Shown one piece after another: positions 1,947 through 59,400 of a DNA stretch of 64,000 nt (positions are counted from its first letter, which is position 1; each line of letters starts with the position of its first letter). Under the pieces are notes generated by a model. It saw nothing but the letters and a program-made list of their open reading frames with translations, was not told the DNA's origin and did not search any database. Source of the DNA: an uncultured virus (IMG/VR IMGVR_UViG_3300009130_000019) (Duplodnaviria; Heunggongvirae; Uroviricota; Caudoviricetes); IMG/VR virus record IMGVR_UViG_3300009130_000019; one strand, given 5' to 3'. The position numbers and the translations under genes were made by a program.

Positions 1947-2222
1947 TTAAAGTGTTTCATCCGCCCCTTCTGCTCCACTAGTGAGGTAGTCCTCATAGTC
2001 AGCTTGAAGGGTTGGAAATTGGATGACTCTATAGTAGGATTTCTCCTCAAAAACTTGAGAAATCTTACCGTCAATTAGACAGTAGCCCTCATTAGTGAGG
2101 ACTGCTGACTGAAATGCCGCCTCTTCATCAGCGGTCATTTCAGATTTAGGTAGATCACCTCTCCAGGAATAGCCTTCATCCTTGGAAATGTTTCTGGCGA
2201 ATAAATAATGTTCTACTTTCAT
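1947..2222 (-). CDS. Hypothetical acidic protein, 91 aa
   Basis: ATGA stop/start overlap with the upstream gene ending at 2219. Confidence 0.75.
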   Translation of the reverse strand: MKVEHYLFARNISKDEGYSWRGDLPKSEMTADEEAAFQSAVLTNEGYCLIDGKISQVFEEKSYYRVIQFPTLQADYEDYLTSGAEGADETL

Positions 2223-2380
2223 GATTTCTTAAATTTTTTGGTTATTAAAATTATTGCTATTGTTTGTGCTGCTTCACGCACATCATCTGCCCACTCACAA
2301 TTAGGCGTGTGATCTAACTGATCAGCTATATCATCAAGCCTTTCAATTAGATCTCTTAATTTTGATTCTTCTAGTGTCAT
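2219..2380 (-). CDS. Hypothetical helical protein, 53 aa (MTLEESKLRDLIERLDDIADQL...)
   Basis: ATG at 2380 has an A-rich leader; the track start at 2419 lies inside a hairpin. Confidence 0.65.
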   Translation of the reverse strand: MTLEESKLRDLIERLDDIADQLDHTPNCEWADDVREAAQTIAIILITKKFKKS

Positions 2381-2401
2381 GTGTTTTATATTTTTATAAG
2401 T

Positions 2402-2434
2402 AAAAAAATACCTGTACATCCTATGTGCACAGGT
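2402..2434 (-). terminator. Intrinsic terminator-like hairpin ACCTGTGCA-CATAGGA-TGTACAGGT followed by A and T7
   Basis: 9-bp stem with a G-U pair on the minus strand and a U-tract. Confidence 0.6.
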
Positions 2435-2490
2435 TTAAAAGGTGGTCAAATGTAAGGCAAGACCAGACCTCCAAGACTTAATACCAACCT

Positions 2491-2530
2491 TCAGTAGCCA
2501 CAGGATTTCAACCCCGCAATATGTGACTAC
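2491..2530 (-). ncRNA. Degenerate tRNA-like minihelix (element C)
   Basis: GTAGTCACA/TGTGGCTAC 9-bp stem enclosing GGGG-TTGAAAT-CC (T-loop-like); acceptor arm related to elements A and B. Confidence 0.35.
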
Positions 2531-2600
2531 TTAAATTGGTGTGACTCAGCGTCAGGTAGCAAGAGCATCCCTAAGAATGCTAATGCAACTAAGAAGACAA

Positions 2601-2738
2601 TCACTTCTTCTTAGTTTTGACTTTAACCTGCTTAACAGGTTGTAAAGTTTTTCCATCTCTGCTTACAATATGAGATGGTTTCTTAACGCTGATAAAATCC
2701 TGTACAAAACACAAGTAGGCTTTATTAAGACCTTTCAT
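2601..2738 (-). CDS. Small basic protein, 45 aa (MKGLNKAYLCFVQDFISVKKPSH...KTKKK)
   Basis: Internal ATG of track ORF 2601..2843; short, so support is modest. Confidence 0.4.
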   Translation of the reverse strand: MKGLNKAYLCFVQDFISVKKPSHIVSRDGKTLQPVKQVKVKTKKK

Positions 2739-2987
2739 AACAAATAAATTAATGTGTTTCCTAAAAAGAATAAACCACCATGTTGCTGGAAACACAGTAA
2801 CACAGCATGGTGGTATTATCTTAAGTGAATACATTCCCCTCAATGGCGTCTACTTTAGTAGCAGACCACCAAGAAGGGAGATAGCCGAGATGGTTTTCAA
2901 GATGCATCTCGACATCTTTCTCTTTTAAAGTCCAGATGAAGCACTGTTGTACTTCGTCCTCCATCCAGACTATTCTATAGAGCATCA

Positions 2988-4205
2988 TTAAAATCTGAAT
3001 TTTATAGACTCCATAAACTCAGGAGTCATTTTAAATTCAATGTCAGCAATTTCAGTAGTAAACACCTCTTCCCATGTATTAAAATCATATAAAAGATTCC
3101 AAAAATGGAAATATTTGTTATCAAGTAACCAAAGCTTAGTCCCTACTAAGCAGGAGCTAGTCATTTTCTTGAAGGATCTGAAAGAAATAATTCCTCTTTC
3201 AAGGATATTGTTTCTTTCCTCTCTGTTGAGGATTTTTTCTTGAAGTTTTTTCAACCCCTTTTTTAGAAAATAATTTTCTACATGGGTTTCAAACCCTTCA
3301 TCTGTCACCCAGATGAAGTATTTTTTGTTTACTTTGGCAGCAGAAAACTTACCGAAAGTTTTAATCCTACCAGAATGAACAACCCCCTCTGATTTGCAGT
3401 GGAGGAATTTACTTCCAATACAAACTTTTCCAATAGAAGTATTGTGGGATTCAAAATCCCAATAAATTCCGCTTAAGGATTTATAATATTCCCTCCAACG
3501 TAAATTTTTCAAGCACCAGACTGAGAGCCTGTTGGAAACAATATTTAGTTTTCCTTCGGAATGGCAATTTAATTCTTGCCTTTCCTTAAACTTCTCATGA
3601 TCAGCAACCCTTTTTATGAAATTCTTATTTCCATGATCAACAAGATGATGGAGAATCTCGACATTGTATTTAGCCCACTCCATGTGAGCTTTGTTTTTAA
3701 AATCAAAATTAGCTGCAATCTTTCTATGCAGCCATTTATTTTCTCCAATATATTTATAACGCTTTACCTTTTTTGCCAGCGTAAATAAACTGGCACCAGT
3801 TTCGATGCCGTGCCTGTTTAATTCATGAAGCATCTCTGCTCCACAATGAAGAAGTAGGTAGTCAGAAAAACTACAGTCATCATTGACTGTAATTAAATGA
3901 TTATATCTTGTGGGCACGTAATCCCACCTCTGCCAGAGGGCAGCCTGCTGAAACTCAGCAGCCTTTAATGGAGATAAGCCCTCAAACCCTTCATAAGGGC
4001 TTGGGCCATAGACTCCACAAGAGTCTAGGCTGCCGCCATGTGAAATAAAAACCTGCATATCTTCAGCAGAAATTTTCAACCCTTCTTTAGGGTAGCGTGT
4101 GAGCCACCCTCCTTTATCCGCCAACCCATAATATGGGTGTAGCTCTAGGTTTGAAAATTTTTCTTCAGACACTTGGTTGAGAGCTTTAATTATATTCATT
4201 TTCAT
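2988..4205 (-). CDS. Hypothetical early protein, 405 aa
   Basis: Long ORF, conserved leader hairpin upstream, 12-bp hairpin downstream (2930-2970); no motif recognised. Confidence 0.85.
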   Translation of the reverse strand: MKMNIIKALNQVSEEKFSNLELHPYYGLADKGGWLTRYPKEGLKISAEDMQVFISHGGSLDSCGVYGPSPYEGFEGLSPLKAAEFQQAALWQRWDYVPTRYNHLITVNDDCSFSDYLLLHCGAEMLHELNRHGIETGASLFTLAKKVKRYKYIGENKWLHRKIAANFDFKNKAHMEWAKYNVEILHHLVDHGNKNFIKRVADHEKFKERQELNCHSEGKLNIVSNRLSVWCLKNLRWREYYKSLSGIYWDFESHNTSIGKVCIGSKFLHCKSEGVVHSGRIKTFGKFSAAKVNKKYFIWVTDEGFETHVENYFLKKGLKKLQEKILNREERNNILERGIISFRSFKKMTSSCLVGTKLWLLDNKYFHFWNLLYDFNTWEEVFTTEIADIEFKMTPEFMESIKFRF

Positions 4206-4250
4206 AGTTGATAATGGTTTGTAGTGCTACACCCTATGAAGTGATGCAAC
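4201..4250 (-). promoter_or_regulatory. Conserved leader hairpin, copy 1 (ACTTCATAGGGT ... TACAAACCA ... AACTATGAAAA)
   Basis: Three sequence blocks shared with 5090-5137 at nearly the same spacing to the ATG; flanking stems differ in sequence. Confidence 0.6.
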
Positions 4251-4315
4251 ACGGATTTATAAAATATTTAAATCCATCTTATATTGGAATGGTTAAGTAG
4301 AGGACAAAGTCCTGA

Positions 4316-4382
4316 TAGTAGTCACAACAGGGATCGAACCTGCTTGTATAAATATACTCTCCAATGTAACCTATTTGTGAAG
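4316..4382 (-). ncRNA. tRNA-like RNA with a truncated anticodon arm (element B)
   Basis: TCACA/TGTGA acceptor pairing, D-loop-like TAGGTTACATTGGAGA, T-arm GCAGG-TTCGATC-CCTGT, 3' end TGTGACT-A-CTA. Confidence 0.55.
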
Positions 4383-4764
4383 TAACGGGACAGCGGCACC
4401 CCTACAGCTGTCCCTTGATTTGAATCAGATTACTCCATGATAATTATTTTTAGTGAATAATAGCACCTCAACAAATAGGTTTATTCTTTGTTACTGCCAT
4501 AAGCAAAGAAAACTATTGGTGCAAGATTTAGAGAGAAGGATTTAACTGAAAACTTGGCAGAAAGTCTTTTATAAAATAAAATATAGGACCATCACCAGAC
4601 CATTGCATCACCGCTATAACTATTTGTTTAACCATTTATACCCGCTAAGGTTCCTTCTCTTGGTTAAGTTTATAGCAGCTACTCAATAGACCTGCTTGAA
4701 AATTTATGGGCAAAAGCCCAGGTTAACAAAATGTGCGTTGTCAGTATGCGCACCCCACTATTTA

Positions 4765-5094
4765 TTAAACTGCCCCACAATCCCAACACGCCCCCCAAGA
4801 AGGGTCGTGGTTTTTAATAATTTCCCCTTTATAGCTGATCACCTCGGCATCAGCTACAATAGTACCACCACAAAAACTACAAGAACCAAGTTCTTTAGTT
4901 TTTTTTTCTACATTCAAGTCTTCTTTGGTTAATTTTTCTATGTAATAACCATCTTGAAGATGGCCTTGCCCATCACCGTAGGCAAGATAAATTTCATGAA
5001 TATCATCTTCATTCAGGAAAAGCACCTCTCTTTTCCCGTTGATGTTTGTTACGTAAAATGATTTCTGTTTTGTTCTAAAAATTGAATTTTTCAT
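4765..5094 (-). CDS. Hypothetical protein with C-terminal Zn-ribbon (CSFC...CWDC), 109 aa
   Basis: Two CxxC pairs; start moved to ATG 5094, which matches the conserved leader spacing. Confidence 0.75.
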   Translation of the reverse strand: MKNSIFRTKQKSFYVTNINGKREVLFLNEDDIHEIYLAYGDGQGHLQDGYYIEKLTKEDLNVEKKTKELGSCSFCGGTIVADAEVISYKGEIIKNHDPSWGACWDCGAV

Positions 5095-5137
5095 AGTTAA
5101 TTTGGTTTGTACTACCATACCCTATGAAGTATGGCAG
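5090..5137 (-). promoter_or_regulatory. Conserved leader hairpin, copy 2 (CTGCCATAC-TTCATAGG-GTATGGTAG)
   Basis: 9-bp stem; same 12-mer and downstream blocks as 4201-4250. Confidence 0.6.
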
Positions 5138-5151
5138 GATGTTAATAAAAA

Positions 5152-5207
5152 ATAGAACCCACAGCCTGACTTGAACAGGCAGCACACCTATATTAGTGGT
5201 GTGGGTT
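5152..5207 (-). ncRNA. tRNA-like minihelix RNA lacking D and anticodon arms (element A)
   Basis: Perfect ACCCACA/TGTGGGT acceptor stem stacked on perfect T-arm GCCTG-TTCAAGT-CAGGC, 19-nt connector, 3' end T-CTA. Confidence 0.6.
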
Positions 5208-5210
5208 ATT

Positions 5211-5286
5211 CTTAGGCTACCAAGCTTGTGGACACCTACTTCTTATAAGCAGGTTATATCCATCCCACAAGCAGATGTAGCCTAAG
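5211..5286 (-). ncRNA. Long structured hairpin, candidate ncRNA
   Basis: CTTAGGCTAC/GTAGCCTAAG and GCTTGTGG/CCACAAGC stems plus inner ACCT/AGGT pairing; non-coding context; strand inferred from neighbours. Confidence 0.5.
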
Positions 5287-5554
5287 TAATCATAGACTAC
5301 AACTGTATTGTGGTTAGCTTGGTAGCTTGTCAGGCGTGTTGCCTTACTTTGAGTAAAGCTTTTCCACACCTCGCAAATTCCTAATTTCTTCATCCTATAT
5401 ATTTTTAAGGATTAAAGATTCCTATCAACACCAAGCCCTGATAGTATAGGCTTTCCTCCTACAAGCACTTACATCTTGATTCTCGGAGGACTGTAGAACC
5501 ACCCAAGGGTTTTGCTCCCCTGCAAGTCAGCATCTAGCTGAGGTGGTTAAGTTT

Positions 5555-5809
5555 TTAGAATGGTAGTGTGTCATAATACCACCAATTACCTAAAAACTTA
5601 TTTGCTGCAGTCATTTCTGCAGCAGTCATGTTAAATACCACAGTCGGCTGTGGCCAATTCATGTTTGGCTCATGCGCCTGTGTTGCCACAGACACAATAG
5701 AACCAAATTTAGCAACCCACCCCTGAGAGGTAAGCTGCAAGTTTTCACAGTCTACTGATGTGCCACAATTACGTGTGGCATAAGTGGAAATTTTTACTAT
5801 AACTTCCAT
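5555..5809 (-). CDS. Hypothetical protein, 84 aa (MEVIVKISTYATRN...), first gene of the leftward block
   Basis: Internal ATG of track ORF 5555..5848 with AT-rich leader. Confidence 0.6.
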   Translation of the reverse strand: MEVIVKISTYATRNCGTSVDCENLQLTSQGWVAKFGSIVSVATQAHEPNMNWPQPTVVFNMTAAEMTAANKFLGNWWYYDTLPF

Positions 5810-5834
5810 AATACATAAGGTTTTGTATCCCCTT

Positions 5835-6121
5835 ATACACATGTACAAGAGGATAGATTAATAAAATAAATACATACATAGATACTCAGCAGCAGAAGAT
5901 CAGAGTTCTTGTCTCCTTGCTTGCTTCCATGTATGTAAGCATACACATGCACATCAAACTGAATGCTTGACTTGTACACATGTATACCCTTGCAACAAAA
6001 AATTTTTGTGCAAGACATGCAGAGTTGCCCTATGTCAATCATAGGGGGTACACTACACGGAAGCAAAACCCGGGGGCAAAATATTATAGACCCCCACACA
6101 TTTCAACACACACATTTCAAC
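5835..6121. repeat. Repeat-rich divergent intergenic region (TACACATG x3; CACACATTTCAAC x2)
   Basis: TACACATG at 5836, 5942, 5975; 13-mer at 6095-6107 and 6109-6121; coincides with the strand and skew switch. Confidence 0.6.
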
Positions 6122-6162
6122 GGGTACATATTTTGTTATGTTCACATAAATAGTTTAGAGTG

Positions 6163-6194
6163 TTTGGGATATTGTTAATAAAGTGATATATTTG
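6163..6194 (+). promoter_or_regulatory. Bacteroidota sigma-A type promoter
   Basis: TTTG (6163-6166), 20-nt spacer, TATATTTG (6187-6194), matching the -33/-7 consensus TTTG-N19-21-TAnnTTTG; ATG at 6208. Confidence 0.75.
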
Positions 6195-6207
6195 GCAAAA
6201 AGGGATT

Positions 6208-6495
6208 ATGGCAAAAAGAAAGAGTATACGTGTTAGTGCAGAGGAGGCAGAGGAGATTATGCGTGAGGCATATGACAACAGTTACAGGTTATTGATGGGT
6301 GAGGTTAGTTACAGGGGTTTAGAGCGGGAGTGCAGGGAGAAGGACATAGATATGTATTTAACATATTATAGTGATATTGGGCCAACATTAGAGGATGTTG
6401 AGGATATGTTATTGTGGTATGAGGAAAAGGAGTGGTATGAGAGGTGTGGTGTTATAAAGAGGTATATAGACAAGAAGTTTAAGAAAGGCAAGTAA
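6208..6495 (+). CDS. Hypothetical protein with a UvrB/UvrC-like helical motif (EEKEWYERCGVIKR)
   Basis: ORF directly after promoter; motif resemblance by eye. Confidence 0.65.
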   Translation: MAKRKSIRVSAEEAEEIMREAYDNSYRLLMGEVSYRGLERECREKDIDMYLTYYSDIGPTLEDVEDMLLWYEEKEWYERCGVIKRYIDKKFKKGK

Positions 6496-6498
6496 ACT

Positions 6499-6530
6499 TT
6501 TGGAGTTTAGATTTAAATTAATTATATTTG
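6499..6530 (+). promoter_or_regulatory. Bacteroidota sigma-A type promoter
   Basis: TTTG (6499-6502), 20-nt spacer, TATATTTG (6523-6530). Confidence 0.75.
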
Positions 6531-6558
6531 GATTATTAAATAACAAAAGCAATATAAG

Positions 6559-6780
6559 ATGGAAAGTACAGAAACAATGGATGATGTTAAGGAGATGAGC
6601 AAGGAGGAGTTACGTGAGAGGCGTAAAAAGGTTACAGAGTATTATGAGGATCACATTCCTCACTTGAAGGTTCAGTTGGAGTATGAGAGGTTATTAACAG
6701 AGATAGAGGAGAACAGGGCAAAGCGTGCACAGGCACAGAAATTTTTGGCACAGATCATGGCACCTGAAGAGAAGGCATAA
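6559..6780 (+). CDS. Small coiled-coil protein, 73 aa
   Basis: ORF bracketed by its own promoter and terminator. Confidence 0.8.
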   Translation: MESTETMDDVKEMSKEELRERRKKVTEYYEDHIPHLKVQLEYERLLTEIEENRAKRAQAQKFLAQIMAPEEKA

Positions 6781-6810
6781 TTACCGTGGGGGTAATTATT
6801 TTGCATAGTT

Positions 6811-6842
6811 AGGGGTGGGGAGTATTTCTTCACCCTTTTTTT
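6811..6842 (+). terminator. Intrinsic terminator
   Basis: AGGGGTGGGGA/TCTTCACCCTT stem with G-U pairs followed by a T-run. Confidence 0.7.
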
Positions 6843-6853
6843 AAAATATAATC

Positions 6854-7765
6854 ATGGAGACATTAAAGGTAGGGTCAAAGGGTATTAATGTAGTTAAGTT
6901 ACAGAGTATTTTAAAGTTAAAGCAGGATGGGTTATTTGGGAGGAAGACTGAGGCAGCTGTAAAGAATTTCCAGATGTACAGGGATTTGAAGGCTGATGGT
7001 ATAGTTGGGATGGAGACATGGGCAAGTTTGTTATCACATGTTGGTCCTATAGAGGCAATAGATCAGGATTCAGATTTACAATATTTTGAGACAAATTATG
7101 ATCAGCGTATAGAGAAGTATTATTTACCTAAGGGGGAGTATGTGGAGAAGAGGTATGATAACAGGTATTGTTTTTTGCATCATACAGCGGGGAGGGAGAA
7201 TCCATTTAGGGTTATAGACAGCTGGGGAAGAGATAGTAGGGGGAGAGTAGGTACTGAATTTGTGCTGGGTGGACAGAGTCATACTACAGGTAGCAGGGAT
7301 TATGATGGTGTTATGGTTCAGGCATTTCCTGAGGGCAATCATGCCTGGCATTTAGGGAAGACGGGTTCAGGGATAATGAACAAGGCTAGTGTTGGGATAG
7401 AGATATGTTCTATGGGTTATTTGGATAATGACTTAAAGACTTATGTTGGTAGTAAGTGTTTAACTTCACAAGCATGCAAGTTGGTAGAGCCTTTTAAGGA
7501 CAGGGTATATTGGCATAAGTATTCTGACCGTCAGTTAGAGGAGATAGAAAAGTGGATAAAGTATATAGGTGAGAGGGACAAGATAGATATGAGGCTTGGT
7601 TTAAAGCAATGGATTAAGAAGTATGGTCCTGTTAAGGCTTTTGGTTTTCAGGAGGATGCTTATTATGGTAAGGTGGAGGGTTTGCTGACACACACAAATG
7701 TAAGAAAAGATAAAAGTGATTGCTATCCAGATCCGGGATTGGTGGATATAATCATGAGTTTATAA
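6854..7765 (+). CDS. Endolysin: N-terminal peptidoglycan-binding domain plus N-acetylmuramoyl-L-alanine amidase (Amidase_2 type)
   Basis: LKVGSKG..V..LQ...DGLFG..TE.AV..FQ...L.ADGIVG..TW (PG_binding_1 pattern); LHHTAG, AWHLG, SVGIEIC, LTH...KSDC zinc-amidase motifs. Confidence 0.9.
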   Translation: METLKVGSKGINVVKLQSILKLKQDGLFGRKTEAAVKNFQMYRDLKADGIVGMETWASLLSHVGPIEAIDQDSDLQYFETNYDQRIEKYYLPKGEYVEKRYDNRYCFLHHTAGRENPFRVIDSWGRDSRGRVGTEFVLGGQSHTTGSRDYDGVMVQAFPEGNHAWHLGKTGSGIMNKASVGIEICSMGYLDNDLKTYVGSKCLTSQACKLVEPFKDRVYWHKYSDRQLEEIEKWIKYIGERDKIDMRLGLKQWIKKYGPVKAFGFQEDAYYGKVEGLLTHTNVRKDKSDCYPDPGLVDIIMSL

Positions 7766-50000: not shown

Positions 50001-50444
50001 ATAAATCCTCTTAATGATGAAACGAATTATATTTTAAATAGTTTAATTAACAAAAAGACTGGCACACATAATAGAGGATTTGCTGATAACTCAAGCGTAA
50101 GTGTTGTTAAAGATGGAAATAGTTATAAATTTAATACAGATTTTTATCAATGGAACAGGACCACAGGAAATTATGATTTATTAACTTCACAACAAATTCA
50201 AAGTCAATTACCTTCTTTTGAAACTAACACTAGAATGTTTAATACTTATAAGCAAGCTAATGATTATTATGAAGAACAGGTAAAATTATTAACAGACTGG
50301 TCTAGCAATCAGTTAAGAAGGAAAGAAGATATAACAAGATATTATAGTGAGTGGTTGTCAAACTTTAATCCACCTTTAGAAAACTCAAAAGAAAACTATA
50401 AAGAGTTTTTAGAAATGTTAAACAAAACAAATTATGGGCGATAA
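47025..50444 (+). CDS. Putative virion cargo/ejection protein, 1139 aa
   Basis: Helical/coiled-coil; directly upstream of and overlapping the RNAP gene by 11 nt. Confidence 0.7.
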   Translation: MATYVPNVAQYLPELKTFTPDYKFLSNVLTAKQTKYDTNYKQLNNAYSRIMYSDLSRQDTQEARDQFVNDLQPTLEKISGLDLSLAQNVRAANAVFEPFYDNDLVMKDMVYTKNYKDNLSYAESLMYSNDQETKDKYWKEGIEYMAIKMEDFKNASQEVAMNMGLEQYVEHPQLYKKARAYLDEKGYKIEYDELSKDRDFIITNTNGEDVTATIMADLKQMFSKDQLINKAYYTQSYVDSRNYAKNQMNEGLVGSVQEGINKYNMGNIEAYKKSQEASVEKYDARINSLNDELNTIQQNLKGKAPVPGSLDDMYIKKIQNQIEGDNKEKEMLMQSITLANEVLSSGDSKMINDRGYSIQMNTNIMQDLRTAATNYSMLTAKKKIEVNQAELHAKNRRHAARMQREKFIFEERMKEKQSQLDAQKELAVYEGKLDIEKERGIKRTTFKYDDDKTLIDKAYDFLGLGETGSTTLLTKTGIEDLSEKVRNDTELEFIENAQEKLVSEELGLYTSLYSITDNDSPVNGMVKIPDGYIVPEEYEENITEYKDNIYMKSEAFKELVKENKNAYEAYSGHLYDMLSNEDTPENPDKKTSNSLKHNSNNNASFEAIINLQEKKKNIEDQRNKYFSTAKEQMRVASELSGNKYLPSPIQEDQNGTDQLLSQEQFNKTIESSDAYAPRYLNSKKFINHVRGGLHLGEAHILKDEIIQNYEKNKKLPDDFILEDKEILVDGKKQYTKRFNPKYFSIRRTTYGNRENQRALSKSMGIMTQAAGGYLMAERYYRMFPVKNEKLYNNISNSYSRQLEELDQIQKGTYLSPKDEKPISGVPYYSFVAQQLDLQDPNALLPTLQIGFKTSDVMNNFQYKDFKESGDVTKIPRSMKNTMFLEKAIQNSLGDYEVYQTKLTSATGRKFDNYKKEDQVDPNMVLNIINNYKTGKLEDDYIIEYTPGNDHEGSSEYRIIAKTDVKANKQHIFGYEYNNFITIKMPNRYDGNEINPLNDETNYILNSLINKKTGTHNRGFADNSSVSVVKDGNSYKFNTDFYQWNRTTGNYDLLTSQQIQSQLPSFETNTRMFNTYKQANDYYEEQVKLLTDWSSNQLRRKEDITRYYSEWLSNFNPPLENSKENYKEFLEMLNKTNYGR

Positions 50445-53400
50445 TTTAAACATGCCAGATAACCTGGAGTTTACACAACAAGACATTGATACAACATTGG
50501 GTCAAGATTTACCAACAACACCAACAGATCTTGATTATGACATTATGTTTAAGGAGTTTTCTGATGCTGCTAACAGTATTTCATATCATTCAGATTATGA
50601 GCCATTAAATTCTAATTATTCTGGGCCAGTTGGTTTTAATTATAATCCATATGAGCAGAATGTTAATCTTTCAAATTCAGAGATTAACATTCTTAAAAAT
50701 ATGAACCAAATAAATGATAAGGTTCTTAAAAATCCTAAGCCTTTACATCCTATTTATACAAATAAGAGAATAACTAATTTTGAAAGATATTATTCTCATG
50801 ATAAATTTGGAGAACTTGGTTGGCATCCATATAGAGATAATGAAAAGATATATAATGAAAACTCAACAGTTTGGGATGACTATGGTAGAATGCTTGGTCA
50901 AATGCCAAAATTGCTTTATACGGGTTTTGTATCTGCATATAGATCTATAGGAGATTTATTTGATGATGACCCTTACTTATTTGGGGGTAAAGATTTAGAT
51001 TCAGCCAGAGAGTTTTCTGATGCTATGAGAATAGGTAATTCTACTAGGGGTGGTGTAGGAGAATTTATGAATAATTTAGTATTGCAGTTTGGATATACAG
51101 GAGGTATTATTTTAAATATTGCAGCAGAAGAATTTATATTATCGGGACTAACAAGAGGGGGGTCTATTTTTACAGCCCCTGCTAGAGTTTTACAAAAAAC
51201 AGCAACTTCAGCAGCAAGAGCAACCAGAATAAAAGAGGGTATAGAATTATTAGGTTCAACAGTAAGCAAATTAAAAAACATAGAAAATTCTAAAGGTTTT
51301 TATCAGGCACTAAGAACTGGTGACAGTAAACTAATGAAGTTTTTACTTCCTGAAACAATGGGTGCCAGGAGACTTATCACAAGTACAAATGGCATGAAAA
51401 ATCTTTCGGACTTTGGGAAAACCATGAAGACTTACGGCGGGTTTTACAGAGATCTTAGAAGTCTTAATTATGCTATATCTGAAGCCAAGATGGAAGGGGG
51501 TATGGTGTATGATGAAAGAATGGTTAATGGCTTAGCATCAAGAAGTGAAGATTCTACATTAGAATATTTACCTGATGAAGATTTAGAATTAATTAGAAAC
51601 GGTGCTAATGAGTCAGCCTATTATACAACTTTGTTAAATGCTCCTTTTATATATTTTACTAATCAATTTATATTAGGAAATGCATTAGGATCTTCTAACA
51701 GGTCTTTAGCTAAATTAATAGCTGATAATTCTGATTCAGTAGCTAAAAAACTTATTAGGCAATCTCCTCTTAAAAAAACATTTTTAGGAAAACCAATTCT
51801 TGATGATGCTGGGAAAGTTTTAGTGAAGCAATCTGGAGCAAAGGGTGTTAAAGGTTTTACAGCAAAAGGTTTAGCTATAGGAACAGCAGGTGTAGCATTA
51901 AGATATTTTAGTCAAAATTTTGGTGAAGGTGTACAAGAGGTATATCAAGAAGCTGTATCTCATGGGGTAGGACATTATTATGATGCAATAATAAAAGATC
52001 CTACATTAAATACAAGAAATTTATTTGCCGCATCATTAAGTGAGGGGATGTCTAGTCAATTTTCTGAACAAGGATTTAAAACTTTCCTTTCAGGGTTTAT
52101 GATGGGCGGTATAGCAGGGCCTGTTCAAAGCTTTTTGTTTAATCATATACCTAATGCAAAAAACTATTTATTTAACAGAGAAGAATTCTTAGCAAAGAAG
52201 AAAGAATTTAAACAATATATTGATAAGCTTGAGAACCAATATAACAGTAGTTATACAAAATTTAAAGAAGATCCTGATAAGTTTTTAGATTTAAAGGTTG
52301 TTAATACAATAATGCAAAGGCAGGTTAGCCAAGCTATGAATGAAACAGTTGTTGATAATGACAACTATGAAAAGATAAACCAAAGGGATATATCTAAATT
52401 TCAAAACTTATATACTTTAGCTAACAATGGTTCTTTAGATATGTTTAGAGATCAGTTGAATGACTATTTAAAACTATCTGATGAAGACATTGCAACAGCA
52501 TTCCCTTCTCTTAAATCTGAAGTTAAAACAGGGAAAATAAAAGAAAGGTTAAATAGCTATATAGAACAAATAGATAAAGTTGAAGAATTATATAATAAAA
52601 ATAAAAACAAAAATATAAATCCTTTTGACCCATCACAGTATGACCCTCTTAAAGAGCCTGGTTTATTCCAGGAAGAAAGCTTTAGGTATAAAACATTTGA
52701 GCACATTAGGTACCTTGCAATGTTCACAGAAAATTCAATGATAAGAGCAGGGGAAAGAATGATTAGTTTATATAAATCACTAGAGGTTGACCCCGTGTTT
52801 AAAAACATGGCTGCTAATGATCTTGTATTGCTTACTCAGGACCGGCTTATTTCTGATGAAATAAATAATCTTAAAGCTGAAATAAAACTTGCTGAAGATA
52901 CTGATACTAAATATGAAGGTCTTAATCTTAAAAAAAGAAAGCTTAAGAATTTACAAAAAATACAAGAGTTTTTAAAAGGTGGAAGAAATAAATTTGGTTC
53001 TATTAAACTAGAAAAGAAAGAACAAATAAGAAAGCTTTTTAAGAAGTATGTACAAGACTTAGCTACAGATAAGCAATCTATCTTAAATACTGATATTCTG
53101 GATGAGCAAATAGATAAAATATTTGATTATAATAAATTATCAGAGGATGAGAAGATGTATAATAATTCTATTATAGCATTATCTGACCCCACTAAGTTTG
53201 ATGAATTATTTACTGCTACTTATAAAAAAAGAAAAGAAATATATGATAATGGAGTTAAGATATTCAGAGATAGTATATACAAACATATCAATAATGAAAT
53301 ATACAGAAAGATTTTAAATGACTTAGCAGACATGGGTTATTATTTAGACCCTCAAGAAGTAATAGCATTCCATGAAAGTGGATATAAAGATTTTTCTTTA

Positions 53401-56400
53401 ATTACTAAAATATATGATGAGAAAGGTATAGTTGAAGATGTAAACATTGAAAAGACTTTAAAGAAATTGCTTGATGATGCAATGCTTAAAGAAGAGCAAG
53501 AGGAAGAGACAGAAGATGATAACAAAGCAATAATTGATGAGGAGATAAAACTTCTAATGGAAGAGTTTGAATTAGATAGTTACACAATAGCTACTCCAGA
53601 GCAGGATCAACAAATAACAAATTTAGAAAAATCTATATTAGGGCAGATACAATTTAACAACCCAAATGAAAATGCATCATCAATAAATAAAAAACATTCA
53701 GATAATCTTTCTATGGTTATTGACTCCTTGTTAGTAGTTGCTGCAAACAACTCATCTATTGAGGCGTATAACTCTTTGCAAGCTTTTGAATTTTATATAA
53801 ATGGTCAACTTGAAGAAAACCAAAAGCAATTTCTTGATAGAATATTTGGCAAGTATGATAAGACTGAAGAAATAAAAAAAGGCTTTAACTCAGAACTAAA
53901 TGAAATTAATGAAGAGGAAGAGATTGAAGAAGTTGGAGATGAGGATTTAGATGAAGAAGAACAAAACAAAGAAGAAGAAGAAAAAAAGAAACTTTCATTA
54001 TTAAACGAAAGGGTGTTTCCTGAGCTTAATAATATTGAGTTAAAGATTAGGGTAAGTAAAAAAACAAAGAAATTTATTATTACAGAAAATAATAAAAGGC
54101 TATCAAAAAACCTCCAGTTATATTTTGGTTTAGATAGTATTGCATTTGACACTTTAGAAGATGCACGCAATGTTTTACAAGGCTTAGAAAAAAGTGAAGA
54201 TGTTGACAATAAGGTTTTTTATTTAAAAAATAATGAATCTCTACAAAATGATCAAACCGTATATGATAATTCAGGTAGAGCTTATATAGTCAAAACAACA
54301 CTACCGTATTTTATTTTAAATAAAGAAATAGTTGCAGTAGATGCTTTAAATAGGAGAAGCCAAATATTAACAGAAGATGGGTTTATTAAAAACTTTTCTA
54401 AGGAGAAAAGAAAAAAGGACTACCCAAATAAATTATCTACAGTAGATAACAATGTTGTTTTAATACCAAGATCTTACAATGTTGATCCAAACACAAAGAA
54501 AAGAATACCTGCGGTTATACCTCAAGAAACATATGCTGCTGTAATGTCTTATTTGGGTAAATCTTATGAAAAAGATGAAGCTAATTTATTTGAAATAAAT
54601 ATATCGTCTTTAGAGCCTACAGATAAACTTAGGCCAGTACAACCTAATATATCAGAGGATGCTCACCCACACATGTTTTATAAGGGGGTTCCATATAGTA
54701 TTTCACTGTCTTTAACTCCAGAGGGTTTATCTTTAATTAACACTGAATTACAAAACAAAAAAATTGAAGTACTTTCTAGTCCTGTCATAGCCTTTTTAAA
54801 TACTAATAATATAGTATTTAAAGATACAAATGGGATTGAGATAAACCCCCTTGAAATGACATTTGATCAAGCGCAAATGTTTTTTCAAAAATTAGACAAT
54901 AATAAATATGAAAGATTAATTGATAATTTTGCTTCAAATAAAGCTTTAGAATATGGCATTAAAGATTATTTTGAAAACAATAATGTAACATCTGTTAAAT
55001 TTACCGAAGAGGAATTTATAAAACAATTTGACATAAGTTTTTTGACGGCTATACAAGAGTTTGACTATAACTCAAACAACCCCATAGAGTTAAACCAGGT
55101 GATGTTTTCTAAAGTTGAAGGTCAATATTTTATAACAAGAAATGTTTTGGATAAAGATTTTAATGTTGTAATAGACATGGAAGTTCCTGGGAATCCAGAA
55201 TTAGATCAATCTTTATTGACTAGAATTGAAAAAGCTAGTGAAGAATATAAGTTTCAGCAAGGGTATATTGCTTGGTCATTTGCACCAAATGGAGATCTTA
55301 TATATATACCACTTAAATCTAAAGTTTTAGAAGATGAAAAGATAGAATCAATATTTAAATCTATTCAAGAAACATCTAATAAAGTAAAAGAAAACCAAAG
55401 TGTAGATCTTGATAAGTTTAATACTGAAAAAGATTATTTCATATCTATGCCTAAAGGTTTTTATTTAAATATTACAGTTGTTGAAGATACTGGGAATGTT
55501 TTATTTACACTTAAGAAAAAAGAATTTAATGGACAAGAAACTAAAACAGTATTTCAAGACACCTTGACATTTACTAATGAACAAATCACACAGTTGTCAA
55601 TTGATAATTTGCAGCAAATATTTGATTATTTTAATGTTCAAATAAAAGATAAATTAGATGATACAATTGCTGAAAATTTCACTCTTACAAAAGAGCAGTT
55701 TAGAGTAAATTTTTCTAAAGATTCTACTAATGAAGAAATTGCAGGAGATGTAAAAACTGATTTACAAGCAAGGGTGTATAAGCGTAAAAATTATAAAATA
55801 CAAGCTTCTACTGAGGCTATAGAGCAAATTAAAAACCCTCCTGTTAACACAAACAACAATAATAATAGCAATGCTAATAATCAAAACTCTAATAAATCAG
55901 ACTTAGATAAAAAGATAGAAGAGATTAATTATATAAGAGAAGGTGCTAAATTGTTAATTGATTCAACTAAACTAGCAAATGTTGTTAGGCAATCAAATAT
56001 TCAAAATACCAAGGAAGGGCTTGAAAATATTGTTAAGTTTTTAAATAATACGTTTTCAGATACATATAAACTTATAGAATTTGATGGAAATCAACTTACC
56101 TTGTCTAGGAATGGTATAGAATTTAAAATACCTTTTTCAGAAAATAAGCTAGGAGGGGGTGCAATTTATGTATTCGACTTTAATATAAATGACATTATAG
56201 ATGCTAAATATAATGCAGAAATAGCAGCATTAACTTTAAATAACAACAATCCAGAATTTAGTAGAGATGATTTAGAGAATCAATTAAGAGAATTAGAAGA
56301 TCAAGAACAAAAAAAGAGAAATGAAATAAACAAGCTTAAAAGAAAGCTTAAAAAACAAACTGATCAAAATAAGATTAATTCTATTACTCAAAAAATAAAT

Positions 56401-59400
56401 GAGTTAGAAGCTGAAGAATTACAATTAGATAAGAAAATATCTGAAATAAATAAACAGCTCAATGAAATTATTGGGAAAGTTATTAATAAGTCTCATACTA
56501 AATATTCAGTAGAAGATATAGATACATTTATAAATTGGCTTAAAGATAATCTACCAAGCTTTATTACAGTTGAAGATATTGATACCCTTAAAGACAATAT
56601 GTTACGTGGAGGAAAAAGAGTGGGTGGGTTTATGATGGACATAAGAAAGATAGCTGGAAAGATTAAATCTGGCGGAGTTATCTTTACTAAAGATGCAAAT
56701 CCAGGAAAGTATCATGAAGCTTTTCACGCTGTATTTAGATTATTGCTTACAAATGAGGAAATTAGAAACTATTTACAAATAGCAGAAAAAGAAGTAAGGG
56801 AAAAATTAAGAAAAGAAGGTAAAACCTTAGACCAAGAACTTGAGTTGTTTAAAAATATTGATATAAGGTTTGATACATATTCTAAAAAACAGTTAAAGGA
56901 AAGATATTTAGAAGAGTATATGGCAGACGAGTTTGATTTATTTAAATCAAATCCAAGATCTACAAAAACAAACTCTTTCATCAAAAGTCTTTTTAATAGA
57001 ATTGTAGAAATAATTAAGAATGTATTATCTTATTTTAGAAAGTCTGATAATGTAGCTTATAATAATCTTAATGAATTATTTATGGCTATTGATTCAGGGA
57101 AATATAAGTCTGCAAATCTAATGGATAACAGATTTACAGAAACGTTTTCTCCAGGGACTTCAGAAATTATTAACACTTTAGTTCCGTATAAGAAAAGATC
57201 TGGTGGAGAATTAGTGTATCTTGATAGTGATACAAGTGATGCTTTAGTAAATCAAATTTATGCAAGAGTTTTAGTTCAACAAGAAAACAGGCCTGGTGTT
57301 ACCATAGATGAACTTATGGATGAAAGCATTGAAAAATTTAATGACTTATATGAGCGACAGATAGAAGACTTAGAAGAAAATGATCCTGAAAATAAAAAAA
57401 TTAGCAGATATAATAATGTTCTTGAAGCATTAGATAATTTTAGAAAGGATATTAAGATCAATATAAATGAAAGGCTTAAATACATAAATCTTACACAGGA
57501 GAATATTGATAATGCTGAAGATGACAGTCTATATGAAATAGGAGAGAACACATCTAACTATGGTCTTAAACAAGAGATGATAGGTGCTGAAAAGTCTATG
57601 CCTAATTTTGTAAGAAAATATTTTGCTTCTACAACAATGGAAAAAAGGGATATGTTTGGTAATACATATCTCACCGAAGATACTATTGATGAGAATGGAG
57701 ATATAGTTAAAGGAGAAAAAATAGTTTCCACACCAAATGTTGCAGAGGCATATAATGGATTCTTAAGAGCAACTAGTGATATATTTAATCATTCAGAAAT
57801 GCTTACCAAACTTGTAGTATTTACCGAGTCAAGTAATTTTGAATCTAAAGCAATTATAGATAGGTTGCTTAAAGATGTAGGTATGACAAGAGAGCAAATC
57901 CTTCAAGATGGAATAGATGAAGGATCTTTTATAGCTCTAAGTCTTGATAATGTTAGTAAAAAACCATATTTATTACATAGAGTATTAAAGTCTTTTGAGA
58001 ATAGCATGTTTACATATAACATGTCAGTATATGATAAAAACACAAACCAATCATATACATATAATCCAATGACTTATTCTGCAAGAACTGCTCAAATAGA
58101 AAGGTGGAGTATTGGAAATGTTGCTGCTATAAAAAAACCAGAGGCAGAGAATTTTACAAAAGTAAAGAAAGCTCGTACAATATTTCAAAATAAAAAAGTT
58201 AGGACTGATCAAAGTTTATTGGAAGACTCAAGGTTAATAGCGGAATTAATTGAAGATGGTGTAGGCATTTCATTAAGCCCTTTGTATATACAGTATTCTA
58301 TAGCAAAAAGTCAAGCACATACAATAAAACAAAGATATTTACGTAATGCTTTTGATAAAAGAGATCCTATAACAATAAGTGATTTGGAACAGTTATCATT
58401 TTTTGCTTTCACAGGCAATGCTATTTTTGTAAAAGATGCAGAAAAAGATATATCTAAAATTTATAGAAGATTAGCTTATAATAATATTGCTTTTGATGAA
58501 ACTATAGGAACTACAACATTTTTAAATCCTGAAAATGAAAGAATATATGCTCACCAATTACCAACCTTTAATGCAAAGTTTGCTAAAGACCTAAATGAAA
58601 ACTATCTTGATTTTTTAAATTATTTAGTTGAAAATGATTCAATCTTAGAATATAATCATTTAGTTAACCAGGAAGACTTTATAGAGTTTGTTGAGAATGG
58701 CGGGTTTAAATATGAAAGAATAGGTGGGTATTCTATTAAAGAATCTTCTGAAGACAGTTCATCTGGGTCATTTATAAATAAAGGTAAGTCATATGGTAAG
58801 TTAACAATGGAAGAGTTTTTAACTATTTTATTAATGAATTACACCTCTAATATAACAGGTTCCGGTAGGTTTTCAGATTCAAAAATTCCAGCATCACCAA
58901 TATTTACAAGAGTTGCAGAAACTTCAAGGACGGGACCAGAATTTCAAATGCCTATATATAAAGCCATTGAAGAAGATAGTAGTATTACCGATAAAGCAAT
59001 ATATGATTTCTACAATTATATTAAAGGAGAGTTTTTAAGAATACAAAAAGAGAGTGCTGAAAATGCAAACACAAAGTTAATAAATAAATATAATGCTATA
59101 ATAAGCGATGTTACTGGTGAGCTTGTTAGAGATGAAAATAAAGAAGGCACAGCATTTAGACTATATAAAACATCAGCTGTTTTAAATAATAATTTAGTTC
59201 AGGTAGAAAAAATAGAAAACCCTGCCACTGACAAGCTTGTGTATGATGTTATTAGTAAGTCTCCAAAGGGACAGGTAACAATAAGCAAAACATCAGAATT
59301 AGCAAACTCTTTAGAAAGAGATGAGAATTTTGCAAATAAAATTAAAATAAAAAAAGAGGAAAATCAACAAGAAATAGATTACAAAAGAACATATTTAATT

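Follow-up and report, generated by a model that had tools for sequence, protein, structure and literature searches.

What separates the genes in a leftward unit of small ORFan genes of this marine crAss-like phage, and could the separators have a function of their own? The window analysed here is the whole 64,000-nt stretch of DNA from the uncultured virus IMGVR_UViG_3300009130_000019 (Caudoviricetes), to which all positions refer. In the first ~3.7 kb of the unit, genes alternate with noncoding cassettes. An earlier note had described nine elements on the minus strand, the same order occurring three times (A, B and C), and all nine are present, at most a few bases from where it had placed them; a fourth minus-strand cassette, U (5598-5394), had been overlooked. 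On the RNA, read 5' to 3', a hairpin at or just past a stop codon is followed by a compact, closed helix-junction (37-52 nt) in which the second hairpin is stacked straight onto the closing stem's 3' strand, then by one or more leader hairpins and an A-rich translation start. CTA occupies the CCA position after each of A, B and U. Runs of T come after A (in the window) and after C' (in two lineages), and none follows A', B' or U. Our reading of these modules, to which we give a probability of only about 40%, is that they may serve RNA processing and translation as punctuation cassettes. Decayed tRNA genes, of which the acceptor and T arms are left, probably mark the sites where the long transcript is cut and control the translation of the next gene. 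The features are as follows, with L004, G004 and L018 denoting relatives:

5550..5598, minus strand: first hairpin of cassette U, covering the 3'-terminal part of gene 1 (5812-5555), stop codon included; U begins directly after it
5498..5549, minus strand: U element, a closed three-way junction of 52 nt, with CTA directly 3'
5394..5497, minus strand: leader of ORF 2, with hairpins CCUCC...GGAGG, AAGCC...GGCUU and AGGA...UCCU, then an A-rich stretch and the ATG at 5393
5217..5393, minus strand: ORF 2, 58 aa, doubtfully coding, with the long hairpin 5286-5211 as its 3' part
5211..5286, minus strand: first hairpin of cassette A, with a 10-bp outer stem CTTAGGCTAC/GTAGCCTAAG, inside the doubtful ORF 5393-5217
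5153..5207, minus strand: A element, a tRNA-like minihelix (5207-5156) with an 8-bp acceptor-like stem AACCCACA/TGTGGGTT
5112..5137, minus strand: A' leader hairpin, whose loop TTCATAG (5128-5122) complements CTATGAA (5096-5090), spanning the ATG at 5094
4765..5094, minus strand: gene 3, 109 aa, with a C-terminal CxxC...CxxC and a homologue in L018 (77% nucleotide identity)
4733..4753, minus strand: hairpin GTGCG...CGCAC directly past the gene 3 stop codon, shared with L018
4387..4414, minus strand: first hairpin of cassette B, GGGACAGC...GCUGUCCC
4316..4382, minus strand: B element (minihelix 4380/4371-4320), a decayed tRNA-Val(UAC)-type gene as judged from its alignment to bacterial tRNA-Val(UAC)
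4224..4252, minus strand: B' leader hairpin, whose loop TTCATAG (4240-4234) complements CTATGAA (4207-4201), spanning the ATG at 4205
2988..4205, minus strand: gene 4, a 405-aa ORFan, not in L004 and replaced in the contig of sequencing run X6
2774..2814, minus strand: hairpin ACCACCATG...CATGGTGGT with a T run, a conserved module upstream of gene 6
2564..2581, minus strand: first hairpin of cassette C, past the gene 6 stop codon
2494..2530, minus strand: C minihelix, with an 8-9-bp stem GTAGTCAC/GTGGCTAC, a bulge on the 5' side and a short inner hairpin abutting the 3' strand
2438..2493, minus strand: conserved C spacer, with a 32-nt block invariant in three lineages and TACATTTG at 2454-2447
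2410..2434, minus strand: C' hairpin, loop CATAGGA, then ATTTTTTT
2219..2380, minus strand: gene 7, 53 aa, in G004 and not in L004

Is the tRNA likeness of the helix-junctions more than chance? A scan of the 64 kb for minihelices constrained by a T loop (a 7-bp closing stem and a 5-bp stem with G53-C61 and a TTCRANN loop abutting the 3' strand) returned exactly two matches, A (5206-5157) and B (4371-4320), while 1000 shuffles gave a mean of 0.003 and never two or more (0/1000). Once the T-loop rule was dropped, the bare minihelix shape was not enriched (17 against 12.85 +/- 3.4 expected), and neither was the hexamer CATAGG in the window (16 against 27.5). ARAGORN made zero tRNA calls over the window, and Rfam gave nothing at gathering scores and no ribozyme match. 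The T arm of A at 5180-5164, GCCTG-TTCAAGT-CAGGC, is letter-identical to one in real phage tRNAs, and CTA at 5155-5153 stands in the CCA position ahead of the T run. The interior of A comprises 19 nt and offers an alternative 6-bp hairpin, CACACC/GGTGTG; the tRNA-like fold (-16.0 to -16.4 kcal/mol) is 4 kcal/mol worse than another fold, the MFE being -20.4 kcal/mol. In three lineages the interior loop of A alone varies, apart from one T-stem change from U-A to U.G.

In a whole-length alignment of B to tRNA-Val(UAC), its 3' part is identical at 25/27 positions and its 5' part at 23/49, with 11 gap columns. Nothing but the T arm and the 3' strand of the acceptor is preserved. An exact match to a 21-nt stretch of B occurs at 48 bacterial genome loci, and ARAGORN calls a tRNA-Val over it in all seven of the loci checked (7/7). 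The T arm (4343-4327) and the discriminator A4319 are intact and the CCA is now CTA (4318-4316), whereas the D and anticodon arms are wrecked, with a D loop TTGGAGAG, an anticodon loop ATACAA and a 10-nt deletion as remnants. Aligned to the Rfam tRNA model, B scores 16 bits (gathering score 29) and shows a collapse of both inner arms. B demonstrably goes back to a gene of the tRNA-Val(UAC) type from which the D and anticodon arms have disappeared and in which CCA has turned into CUA, and the view that both A and B are tRNA mimics of true tRNA descent is supported. The original acceptor of B has 5 bp (TCACA/TGTGA), and an alternative compact stem of 7 bp, GGTTACA/TGTGACT, closes 4371-4320. The compact fold is about as good as the MFE (-10.1 against -10.2), and its acceptor stem is absent from the 563-nt fold of the B region. 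The 71-nt stretch originally proposed for B has no unusual overall stability (-11.2 kcal/mol, z +0.13, equalled by 95/200 shuffles).

The other two helix-junctions are of a different kind. C had been put forward as a third anticodon-less tRNA-like RNA, and this part of the proposal fails where A and B stand: C has no T-loop consensus and is a conserved bulged hairpin. Its outer stem is invariant in three lineages and its bulge variable, with one inner G.U changed to G-C in L004. U shows neither a T-loop consensus nor a tRNA signature. It has a 7-bp closing stem, AACCACC/GGTGGTT, a hairpin I, TCAGC-TAGAT-GCTGA, and a hairpin II, CAGGGG-AGCAAAA-CCCTTG, which abuts the 3' strand; this three-way junction is the MFE (-22.4 kcal/mol) and forms also within the 466-nt fold. 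The three cassettes had been called parallel, but A, B and C are not equivalent, since C lacks the T-loop consensus and C' is terminator-like.

Folding energies of the nine elements first described were scored as z against 200 shuffles per element. The first hairpins reach -14.1 kcal/mol (z -3.2) at 5598-5550, -37.0 kcal/mol (z -6.0, equalled by 0/200 shuffles) at 5286-5211, which stops 3 nt short of the A element, -18.7 kcal/mol (z -3.5) at 4414-4387 and -8.7 kcal/mol (z -3.4) at 2581-2564. For the junctions, A (63 nt) gives -20.9 kcal/mol (z -2.7) and 2530-2491 gives -14.4 kcal/mol (z -2.8); A' (5137-5112), B' (4252-4224) and C' (2434-2410) give -13.8 (z -3.3), -14.2 (z -4.1) and -12.2 kcal/mol (z -4.05), respectively. 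The 466-nt fold of 5560-5095 has z -8.9 and the B intergenic region z -4.2, while the ORF 2 leader reaches only z -0.6. L004 has, at the position matching 5598-5550, a hairpin of other sequence (-17.0 kcal/mol, z -4.9); the sequence of 2581-2564 is likewise not kept in L004 or G004, where other hairpins appear to be present as judged by eye.

What might the leader hairpins do? A' and B' form a single 52-nt direct repeat with 71% identity, and the 25-nt pattern common to them has two matches where 0.00 are expected. Genes 3 and 4 are the only ones (2/39 genes of the window) with an upstream complement of at least 6-7 nt to the start codon, and in both it sits in a hairpin loop and is retained in L004 and G004; the energy of the duplex between loop and start codon is -7.9 kcal/mol. 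A' is 100% identical in L004 and G004, and the X6 contig lacks 3 nt at 4242-4244, which yields a clean 9-bp B' stem in the same register as A'. The exact complementarity accounts for A' and B' better than the plain leader hairpins of the earlier note. C' shares merely CATAG in its loop with A' and B' and, with the T run after it, scores as terminator-like; it looks like a terminator.

Taken together, the punctuation reading would work as follows. The unit would be transcribed as one long RNA, from which host RNase P, on the 5' side, and RNase Z, past the discriminator, would excise the minihelix. Acceptor/T-arm minihelices are substrates of both enzymes, and RNase Z is inhibited by an encoded CCA; in this scheme it would be unblocked because CCA has turned into CUA. 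Each cut would give the message upstream a hairpin at its 3' end and the one downstream a hairpin at its 5' end. The leader-hairpin loop UUCAUAG of cassettes A and B could pair with CUAUGAA over the start codon, and this pseudoknot may gate the translation of the next gene.

How far do relatives bear this out? Three viral contigs, and contigs from four sequencing runs, carry the modules again at 80-100% identity, and the intervening genes differ. RNA runs containing the stretch were not found. The order of hairpin, element, hairpin and gene is kept in the close relatives L004, L005 and G004 with changed genes, but the elements are missing from L003, the closest relative by its endolysin-like gene, and from all relatives farther off, so they are dispensable. 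L004 has the U block at 97.6%, A with A' at 93.7% and the C block at 82.5%, its genes being replaced or ~80% identical. G004 has A with A' at 90%, flanked by different genes, and keeps the C block, gene 7 included, at 80%; U was not found there at the corresponding place, and parts of the ORF 2 leader occur in two copies (88% identity). The hairpin module 2814-2774 is 87% identical in L004 and 94% in G004. U is identical in L004 between CTTAACCACC and TAATCCT, and the run X5 contig matches 5453-5549 with 0 differences, its flanks unlike on either side; U, the B intergenic region and C are likewise present with unlike flanks in contigs of runs from other studies. The joints of this shuffling fall at the cassette edges and right behind the start codon. 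Given conserved cassettes and genes that are not conserved, recombination between related phages uses the cassettes as joints and so shuffles the genes.

Covariation is thin. C' in L004 shows a single double compensatory pair (T-A to A-T) along with two one-sided changes, and A has none. The X6 differences given here are those listed, and up to 3 substitutions and 1 gap more lie in that contig. Three of them, in the 5' strand of the B compact stem, are one-sided and keep pairing, turning 5 Watson-Crick and 2 G.U pairs into 6 and 1, and none of those listed lies within the T arm or 3' strand of B. In the X5 and X6 contigs C4387 is T, which makes the closing pair of 4414-4387 G.U instead of G-C, and X6 has 0 differences across 2747-2814. 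Among the differences listed for X6 are also 1-nt indels at 5239 and 5316 within ORF 2, which resembles a 62-aa ORF of L004 only weakly (E 0.007, 7/19). Gene 3 scored 24.6 bits against DUF7837, under the cut-off of 27.8. As U is identical wherever present and the stems of A are near-invariant, conservation could reflect recent exchange and not constraint.

More distant relatives add context. In L018 a hatchet ribozyme scores 52.3 bits (gathering score 51); it is directly preceded by a 12-bp hairpin and has the ATG of the following gene 52 nt downstream, and a small hairpin between ribozyme and gene is visible by eye and is not in the predicted fold. The same unit holds a twister-like match (49 bits, E 9e-9), and together these make intergenic RNA cutting plausible in this lineage. 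L011 and L020 carry true tRNA-Met, -Leu and -Arg genes on the minus strand, at least 7.7 kb upstream of the endolysin-like gene. These tRNAs form a distal cluster and not gene-by-gene punctuation.

Could the cassettes act at the level of DNA and transcription instead, each as a terminator hairpin, a phage or host promoter and a leader, as in the hyperplastic regions of T4-type phages, with the conservation of the modules due to cassette recombination and the tRNA-like parts as functionless, decaying relics of a former phage tRNA cluster? We find this main rival doubtful, though possible. It resembles PeSL, cassettes of promoter and stem-loop terminator by which, in the part of the report available to us, recombination inserts, deletes or replaces ORFan genes between close relatives of T4-type phages (PMC2839356). 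The modular shuffling, with joints at cassette edges or after the start codon, is directly seen, B is a wrecked tRNA gene, and relatives hold real tRNA genes upstream on the same strand. Moreover, C' scores as an intrinsic terminator and A has a T run behind it, but A', B' and U have none. The invariant 32-nt block of the C spacer includes a TAnnTTTG-type box, and TACATTTG at 2454-2447 is a possible host-type -7 box; TAnnTTTG, however, is not enriched in the window (94 against 104) and is present in just one cassette of the four (1/4), a repeated promoter motif was not found, and sigma-70-like sites number 35 against 26.3 +/- 4.9 expected. Neutral decay, finally, fails to account for the identities of B (25/27 on the 3' side, 23/49 on the 5' side) or for its pairing-preserving X6 changes.

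Could the leader hairpins be N4-style DNA hairpin promoters for an injected virion RNA polymerase, the conserved loop TTCATAGG amid variable stems being the recognition element? We consider this improbable. N4 promoters have 5-7-bp stems and 3-nt loops, unlike the stems of 9-10 bp and loops of 7-8 nt found here; there are just two or three such hairpins, the other genes of the unit having small hairpins with unrelated loops, and the exact 7-nt complementarity of loop and start codon is left unexplained. The loop is indeed kept across hairpins with unlike stems (A', B', B' in X6, C', C' in L004), and the hairpins lie directly upstream of genes in a presumed early unit. The accessible part of one preprint fits as well: gp66, the crAss-like virion polymerase, uses single-stranded or denatured DNA as its template, and a linear early-promoter motif was not found for phi14:2 (bioRxiv 10.1101/2020.03.07.982082). 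Least credible is that the minihelices are themselves products, stable tRNA-acceptor mimics acting in trans as decoys for host enzymes or acceptor-end defence toxins or as substrates of the CCA-adding enzyme: the acceptor and T arm are selectively kept and the anticodon lost, three 52-nt elements lie in one unit, a tmRNA-like hit (tmRNA being likewise an anticodon-less tRNA mimic) lies in the long early intergenic region of phi14:2, and the long early intergenic RNAs of that phage are abundant and stable according to the same part of that preprint, but U and C lack tRNA signatures, most relatives lack the elements, and the strict position between stop-codon hairpin and leader hairpin suits a cis role better.

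The cassettes that we read as punctuation share with true phage tRNAs and tmRNA a T arm with G53-C61 and a TTCRANN loop and an acceptor stem, B being homologous to tRNA-Val, but have no cloverleaf, usable anticodon arm or CCA. The E. coli rpsO/S15 leader forms a translational-control pseudoknot that includes the start codon; here too an upstream hairpin loop complements the initiation region, a complementarity that is conserved, so that the start codon could be masked or trapped in a putative pseudoknot. Among phage intergenic ribozymes (hatchet, twister, theta), HDV-like theta ribozymes adjoin viral tRNAs and are linked to tRNA processing, as far as the accessible text goes (PMC10879173). The hatchet and twister-like element of L018 lie in the corresponding unit, whereas the window has no ribozyme match and a host enzyme would need to cut. 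As in PeSL, small conserved intergenic stem-loop cassettes stand between nonessential ORFan genes; unlike PeSL, they show no evident sigma-70-like promoter, are longer (100-560 nt) and include junctions derived from tRNA and a loop that complements the start codon. In the mitochondrial tRNA punctuation model and in mascRNA, a tRNA-like structure is cut by RNase P and RNase Z and sets mRNA ends. Plant mitochondrial t-elements contribute to 5' and 3' end formation, according to the part of the source available (PMC1920247). With these systems the cassettes share a degenerate tRNA-like structure between or beside messages as a putative RNase P/Z target; unlike t-elements and mascRNA, they lie in a phage operon, their cleavage is a prediction, and they retain only acceptor and T arm around a 19-21-nt interior, set between dedicated flanking hairpins in cassettes that are mobile.

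The plus strand of the window encodes, from about 6200 onwards, a terminase, a portal, a major head protein and giant virion proteins, which marks it as part of a large phage. Its terminase is 27% identical to terminases of crAss-like phages of Flavobacterium, Bacteroides and Cellulophaga, and DNA matches to the stretch come from marine metagenomes, with no RNA run listed for window 2300-6200. At 50434-63999 (plus), an open frame exceeding 4522 aa runs past the window end. A unit of small genes on the minus strand extends from a divergent intergenic region to the window start, and the noncoding cassettes investigated here lie in the first 3.7 kb of this unit:

~6207-5849: divergent intergenic region, start of the minus-strand unit
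5812-5555, minus: gene 1
5549-5498, minus: noncoding element U
5207-5156, minus: noncoding element A
5137-5112, minus: leader hairpin A'
5094-4765, minus: gene 3 (109 aa)
4380/4371-4320, minus: noncoding element B
4252-4224, minus: leader hairpin B'
4205-2988, minus: gene 4 (405-aa ORFan)
2530-2494, minus: noncoding element C
2434-2410, minus: hairpin C'
2380-2219, minus: gene 7 (53 aa)

The leftward genes gave no family match in PHROGs and Pfam except for a sub-threshold one to DUF7837 on gene 3; neither the 85-aa gene 1 product nor the 405-aa protein has relatives among viral contigs, and blastn of window 2000-6500 against the phage collection returned 0 matches. Judging from its position and content, we take the unit to be probably early. 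Boxes of the sequence TATATTTG at 6187-6194 and 6523-6530 (plus) shortly precede the plus strand's first two ORFs (6208 and 6559); they fit the Bacteroidetes-type -7 promoter element and suggest a Bacteroidota host, with transcription of the plus strand by the host polymerase. The divergent region holds two palindromes, CCCTATG-ATTGA-CATAGGG (6048-6030, minus; CATAGGG in the stem) and CTTGCACAAAAATTTTTTGTTGCAAG (6012-5987, minus). A small hairpin, CCTC-ACTA/AGTA-GAGG, is repeated at 781-766 and 131-116 (minus), 16-17 nt upstream of two ATGs (749 and 98), and a third related copy (1990-1975, minus) lies inside the 3' end of a gene. The 560-nt intergenic region around B contains a possible 36-aa ORF (~4634-4524, minus).

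Are the elements real, and are they tRNA-like? The earlier note had described three parallel cassettes, each consisting of a hairpin, a tRNA-like RNA, a CATAGG-loop hairpin and a gene. All nine of these noncoding elements are found in the window sequence and eight fold better than shuffled sequences, the exception being the 71-nt stretch of B (z +0.13). The common layout was also found, but it comprises four cassettes, since U had been overlooked, and two of them carry true tRNA signatures. When we scanned for a 7-bp closing stem with an interior of 2-25 nt and, placed directly against its 3' strand, a 5-bp stem that includes G53-C61 and carries a TTCRANN loop, the window returned exactly A (5206-5157) and B (4371-4320), against a shuffle mean of 0.003 (n=1000). 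Both have the 5-bp T stem with G53-C61 and a 7-nt TTCRANN loop, stacked on a 7-bp acceptor stem, and this loop consensus is absent in U and C. Without the T-loop rule the minihelix shape is not enriched in the window (17 vs 12.85 +/- 3.4 in shuffles), although four of the 17 lie on the minus strand at 4320-5547, one of them being U; the leftward units of 13 relatives hold 8 such shapes vs ~6 expected, and among these relatives only the contig L004 has U and A. At 52 nt, U equals A and B in size; it is a three-way junction, the junction fold being its MFE structure, and C is a bulged hairpin. ARAGORN found 0 tRNA genes in the window and Rfam 0 matches at gathering scores; with E up to 10, Rfam gave no tRNA match in 2000-7000 and none to A or U. 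A search of 1.4 kb with RF00005 scored B at 16 bits (E 5.1, gathering score 29), and in the alignment to the tRNA model the D and anticodon arms of B are collapsed to 8 and 7 nt. The ribozyme covariance models in Rfam, hatchet and twister included, had no match in the window at gathering scores or at E up to 10, and U was rejected as a hammerhead or other known ribozyme because its junction strands misfit by eye and Rfam had no match. CTA occupies the position of CCA after A, B and U, a post hoc observation on three cases only.

The origin of B could be traced. A 21-mer spanning the T arm and the 3' acceptor strand has exact matches at 48 bacterial genome loci and 0 in viral contigs; ARAGORN called tRNA-Val over it in all seven of the bacterial loci checked. 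Compared with Clostridium tRNA-Val(UAC), the 3' part of B is identical at 25 of 27 positions, the two changes being C72 to T and CCA to CTA, and the 5' part at only 23 of 49, with 11 gap columns. What survives of the D loop is TTGGAGAG, and of the anticodon loop ATACAA; a 10-nt deletion has taken the 3' side of the anticodon stem together with the variable loop and the first base of the T stem. On the evidence of these loci and this alignment, B is the remnant of a tRNA-Val-type gene in which decay has spared the T arm and the 3' acceptor strand. This 3' strand has found a second partner in the former D-stem region (GGTTACA/TGTGACT). In a variant contig from sequencing run X6, the 5' strand differs by one deletion and two substitutions and reads AGTCATA, giving a better-paired stem of six Watson-Crick pairs and one G.U, vs 5 + 2 in the window; among the changes listed for this contig, which are all but up to 3 substitutions and 1 gap, none falls in the T arm or 3' strand of B. 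We also considered whether B might end a tmRNA whose 5' strand lies far away, and rejected this because ARAGORN finds no tmRNA and a local 5' strand is present. As for A, its T-arm 17-mer is exact at 10 other viral loci, four of which are ARAGORN tRNAs (Ile, Ile, Arg, Met), and no ancestor of A was identified, none of them sharing its acceptor. A family of small hairpins with the same stem letters as the T arm of A, GCCTG-TTAGAT-CAGGC, has members before three L004 genes (~4030-4010, 3715-3690 and 3150-3130), where ACAA(C/A)AC and the ATG come next, and one copy in the window (1938-1918, minus). The bases just 5' of A (GGTAGCC...) appear to have a complementary segment 76-170 nt upstream, within unrelated-looking ORFs, in three lineages (window 5286-5277 with 5220-5211; L004 ~5969 with 5812; L030 ~1044 with 1163), with folding support for the window only.

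The hairpins between the elements and the genes had been treated as one CATAGG class. This holds for A' and B', which are parts of one 52-nt repeat, but C' differs: its loop is CATAGGA, it has no complementarity to a start codon, and it is followed by a T run. The 3' part of the A'/B' repeat is an A-rich start region present in plus-strand genes too. For the same reason the leader ACAAACCAAATT was rejected as a motif specific to the unit: leaders of plus-strand genes are similarly A-rich, so that it is an ordinary start region. The specific part of the repeat is the hairpin, whose stems differ while the loop TTCATAGG is common to both, and the run X6 form of B' has 3 nt fewer and forms a clean 9-bp stem in the register of A'. 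Within these loops, TTCATAG is exactly reverse-complementary to CTATGAA, which spans the start codon some 34 nt further downstream. The genes downstream of A' and B' are the only two among the 39 of the window with an upstream complement of at least 6 nt to their own start codon, the duplex amounts to -7.9 kcal/mol, and the complementarity is kept in L004 and in a third lineage, contig G004, despite different downstream genes. Together these observations point to a pseudoknot between loop and start codon, predicted here from the sequence. CATAG-loop hairpins are not enriched window-wide (9 vs 6.6 in shuffles); those that stand out are only the three in this region with stems of at least 9 bp. 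The TAG of the CATAG loops was rejected as the stop of an upstream ORF, as open frames ending there have just 8-31 codons in the window and L004; it ends a real ORF only in L018, a 114-kb relative.

Relatives gathered through the endolysin-like neighbour (6854-7765) comprised 9 viral and 15 metagenome loci on 20 distinct contigs, and only L004 and L005 among them carry the cassettes. Identity there is 97.6% for the U block, 93.7% for A with A', 87% for a module at 2817-2716 and 82.5% for the C block; both contigs lack genes 3-5 and cassette B, and have another gene after A'. G004, found by a DNA pattern made from A, has A with A' at 90%, a module at 2814-2732 at 94% and C, C' and gene 7 at 80%; it lacks U, and the genes on both sides of A differ from those of the window. 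The earlier note had predicted a conserved order and covariation in related phages. The order of elements at message boundaries is indeed that of the window in L004 (U, A, C) and G004 (A, C), but the elements are absent in more distant relatives, and window DNA 2370-5600 had no match in the L003, L006 and L011 records. Covariation is almost absent; the C' retained by L004 shows one double compensatory pair. Contigs of runs X3-X6 contain U (0-1 differences listed), the whole B intergenic region (~94% identical) and C, with flanks unlike those of the window or differently joined, and joints in relatives fall at cassette edges or a few bases past the ATG. Shared cassettes, unlike flanks and joints at the edges directly demonstrate modular gene shuffling at conserved cassettes: conservation of the noncoding modules exceeds that of the intervening genes, and gene content is mosaic.

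Insertion, deletion or replacement of genes together with stem-loops, bounded by cassettes, is the pattern by which PeSLs are recognized, and it is seen here. Could the modules be PeSL-like promoter/terminator cassettes (as described in PMC2839356) which carry tRNA relics? C' fits an intrinsic terminator, a G+C-rich hairpin directly before a T run, and the sequence after A reads CTATTTTTT in the window, CTATTTATTAC in L004 and CTATTTATTAT in G004. The form of an intrinsic terminator was not found in A', B', U or B. A sigma-70 scan, whose reach does not extend to phage-polymerase promoters, gave 35 sites in the window vs 26.3 +/- 4.9 expected, none prominent at cassettes, and C is the only one of the cassettes with a Bacteroidetes-type TAnnTTTG box. 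We regard this explanation as possible, though we hold it only tentatively. Another candidate function for the leader hairpins is that of hairpin promoters for a virion polymerase. Hairpin promoters of the N4 type have a 5-7-bp stem and a 3-nt loop. The window hairpins, with stems of 9-10 bp and loops of 7-8 nt, do not have this shape, and we consider the idea improbable.

More distant relatives carry other structured RNAs in this region:

L018 3860-3787, minus: hatchet ribozyme (52.3 bits, gathering score 51)
L018 5909-5848, minus: twister-P1-like match (49 bits, below the gathering score of 67.2; E 9e-9)
L027 (phi14:2, NC_021806) 4031-4502, plus: tmRNA-like match (46 bits, gathering score 47, E 6.8e-16)

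The hatchet has a 12-bp hairpin directly before it and, 52 nt after it, the ATG of a MoxR/AAA_5-type ATPase gene; a small hairpin between the two was seen by eye only. The twister-P1-like match lies upstream of the hatchet, in a 1.4-kb stretch of the leftward unit between a 193-aa ORF and the gene 3 homologue, where the ORFs listed are all short and unconserved (<100 aa). Two copies of a long noncoding repeat were seen by eye in L018 (~6640-6510 and ~5520-5370, minus); they share TTCACTATGTCCGCC and GCTCTCATA...GTACGTGAACCC, and one is closed by GGGTTCAC...GTGAACCC. Genes for tRNA-Met, -Leu and -Arg occur in L011 and L020, at least 7.7 kb upstream and on the same strand. In phi14:2 the tmRNA-like match is inside the long early intergenic region of 1.7 kb, g004-g006, whose RNA is abundant, stable and of unknown function, and no early promoter motif was found in this phage, according to the preprint (bioRxiv 10.1101/2020.03.07.982082). 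In the leftward units of L009 and L011, a motif CTGCTCCCTTCC (or ACTCCCTTCC) stands ~45-50 nt before the ATG of several genes and may be a lineage-specific promoter.

The reading that we favour for the window, at somewhat less than even odds, is that the cassettes punctuate the unit for RNA processing and translation. The minihelices would recruit RNase P and RNase Z to the transcript, where CUA in place of CCA may permit the RNase Z cut. The upstream hairpins, whose ends lie 0-15 nt from U, A and B and 33 nt from C, could shield the new 3' end and the leader hairpins the new 5' end, and pairing of loop and start codon might gate translation of the next gene. Against processing stand the near absence of covariation, a fold of A more stable than the tRNA-like one, the T runs after A and C', and the dispensability of the elements in relatives. 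A broader reading, to which we give a probability of roughly one in four, is that marine crAss-like phages punctuate an operon of ORFans, probably an early one, with RNA-cutting modules that can replace one another. From lineage to lineage these would be acceptor/T-arm minihelices of decayed tRNAs, cut by the host's RNase P and RNase Z, or hatchet or twister ribozymes, or true tRNAs, with end-protecting hairpins on both sides; two of the cassettes would add a loop that pairs with the next start codon, and the portable cassette would set both cutting and translation and drive gene shuffling. That the minihelices are instead trans-acting acceptor mimics seems very improbable. No element reached a full cloverleaf above the family threshold in ARAGORN or Rfam.

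The expression and regulation of early genes in crAss-like phages are largely unknown, and the biological roles of small ribozymes in phages are still unclear. The cassettes explain the swapping of ORFans between related phages. If they are processing and translation modules, they offer a concrete, testable model of early expression for an abundant phage group, in which tRNA genes have been recycled into cis-acting signals, and suggest that tRNA-like elements and small ribozymes are functionally equivalent. A literature search covering sources other than subscription journals found no account of Crassvirales tRNA-like elements or of phage minihelix processing signals. Processing signals resembling tRNA and shuffling cassettes are each already of a known kind; what appears to be new is their combination in a crAss-like phage, the descent of one element from tRNA-Val and the loop complementary to the start codon. 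Punctuation of an operon by such modules would be the phage counterpart of the mitochondrial tRNA punctuation model.
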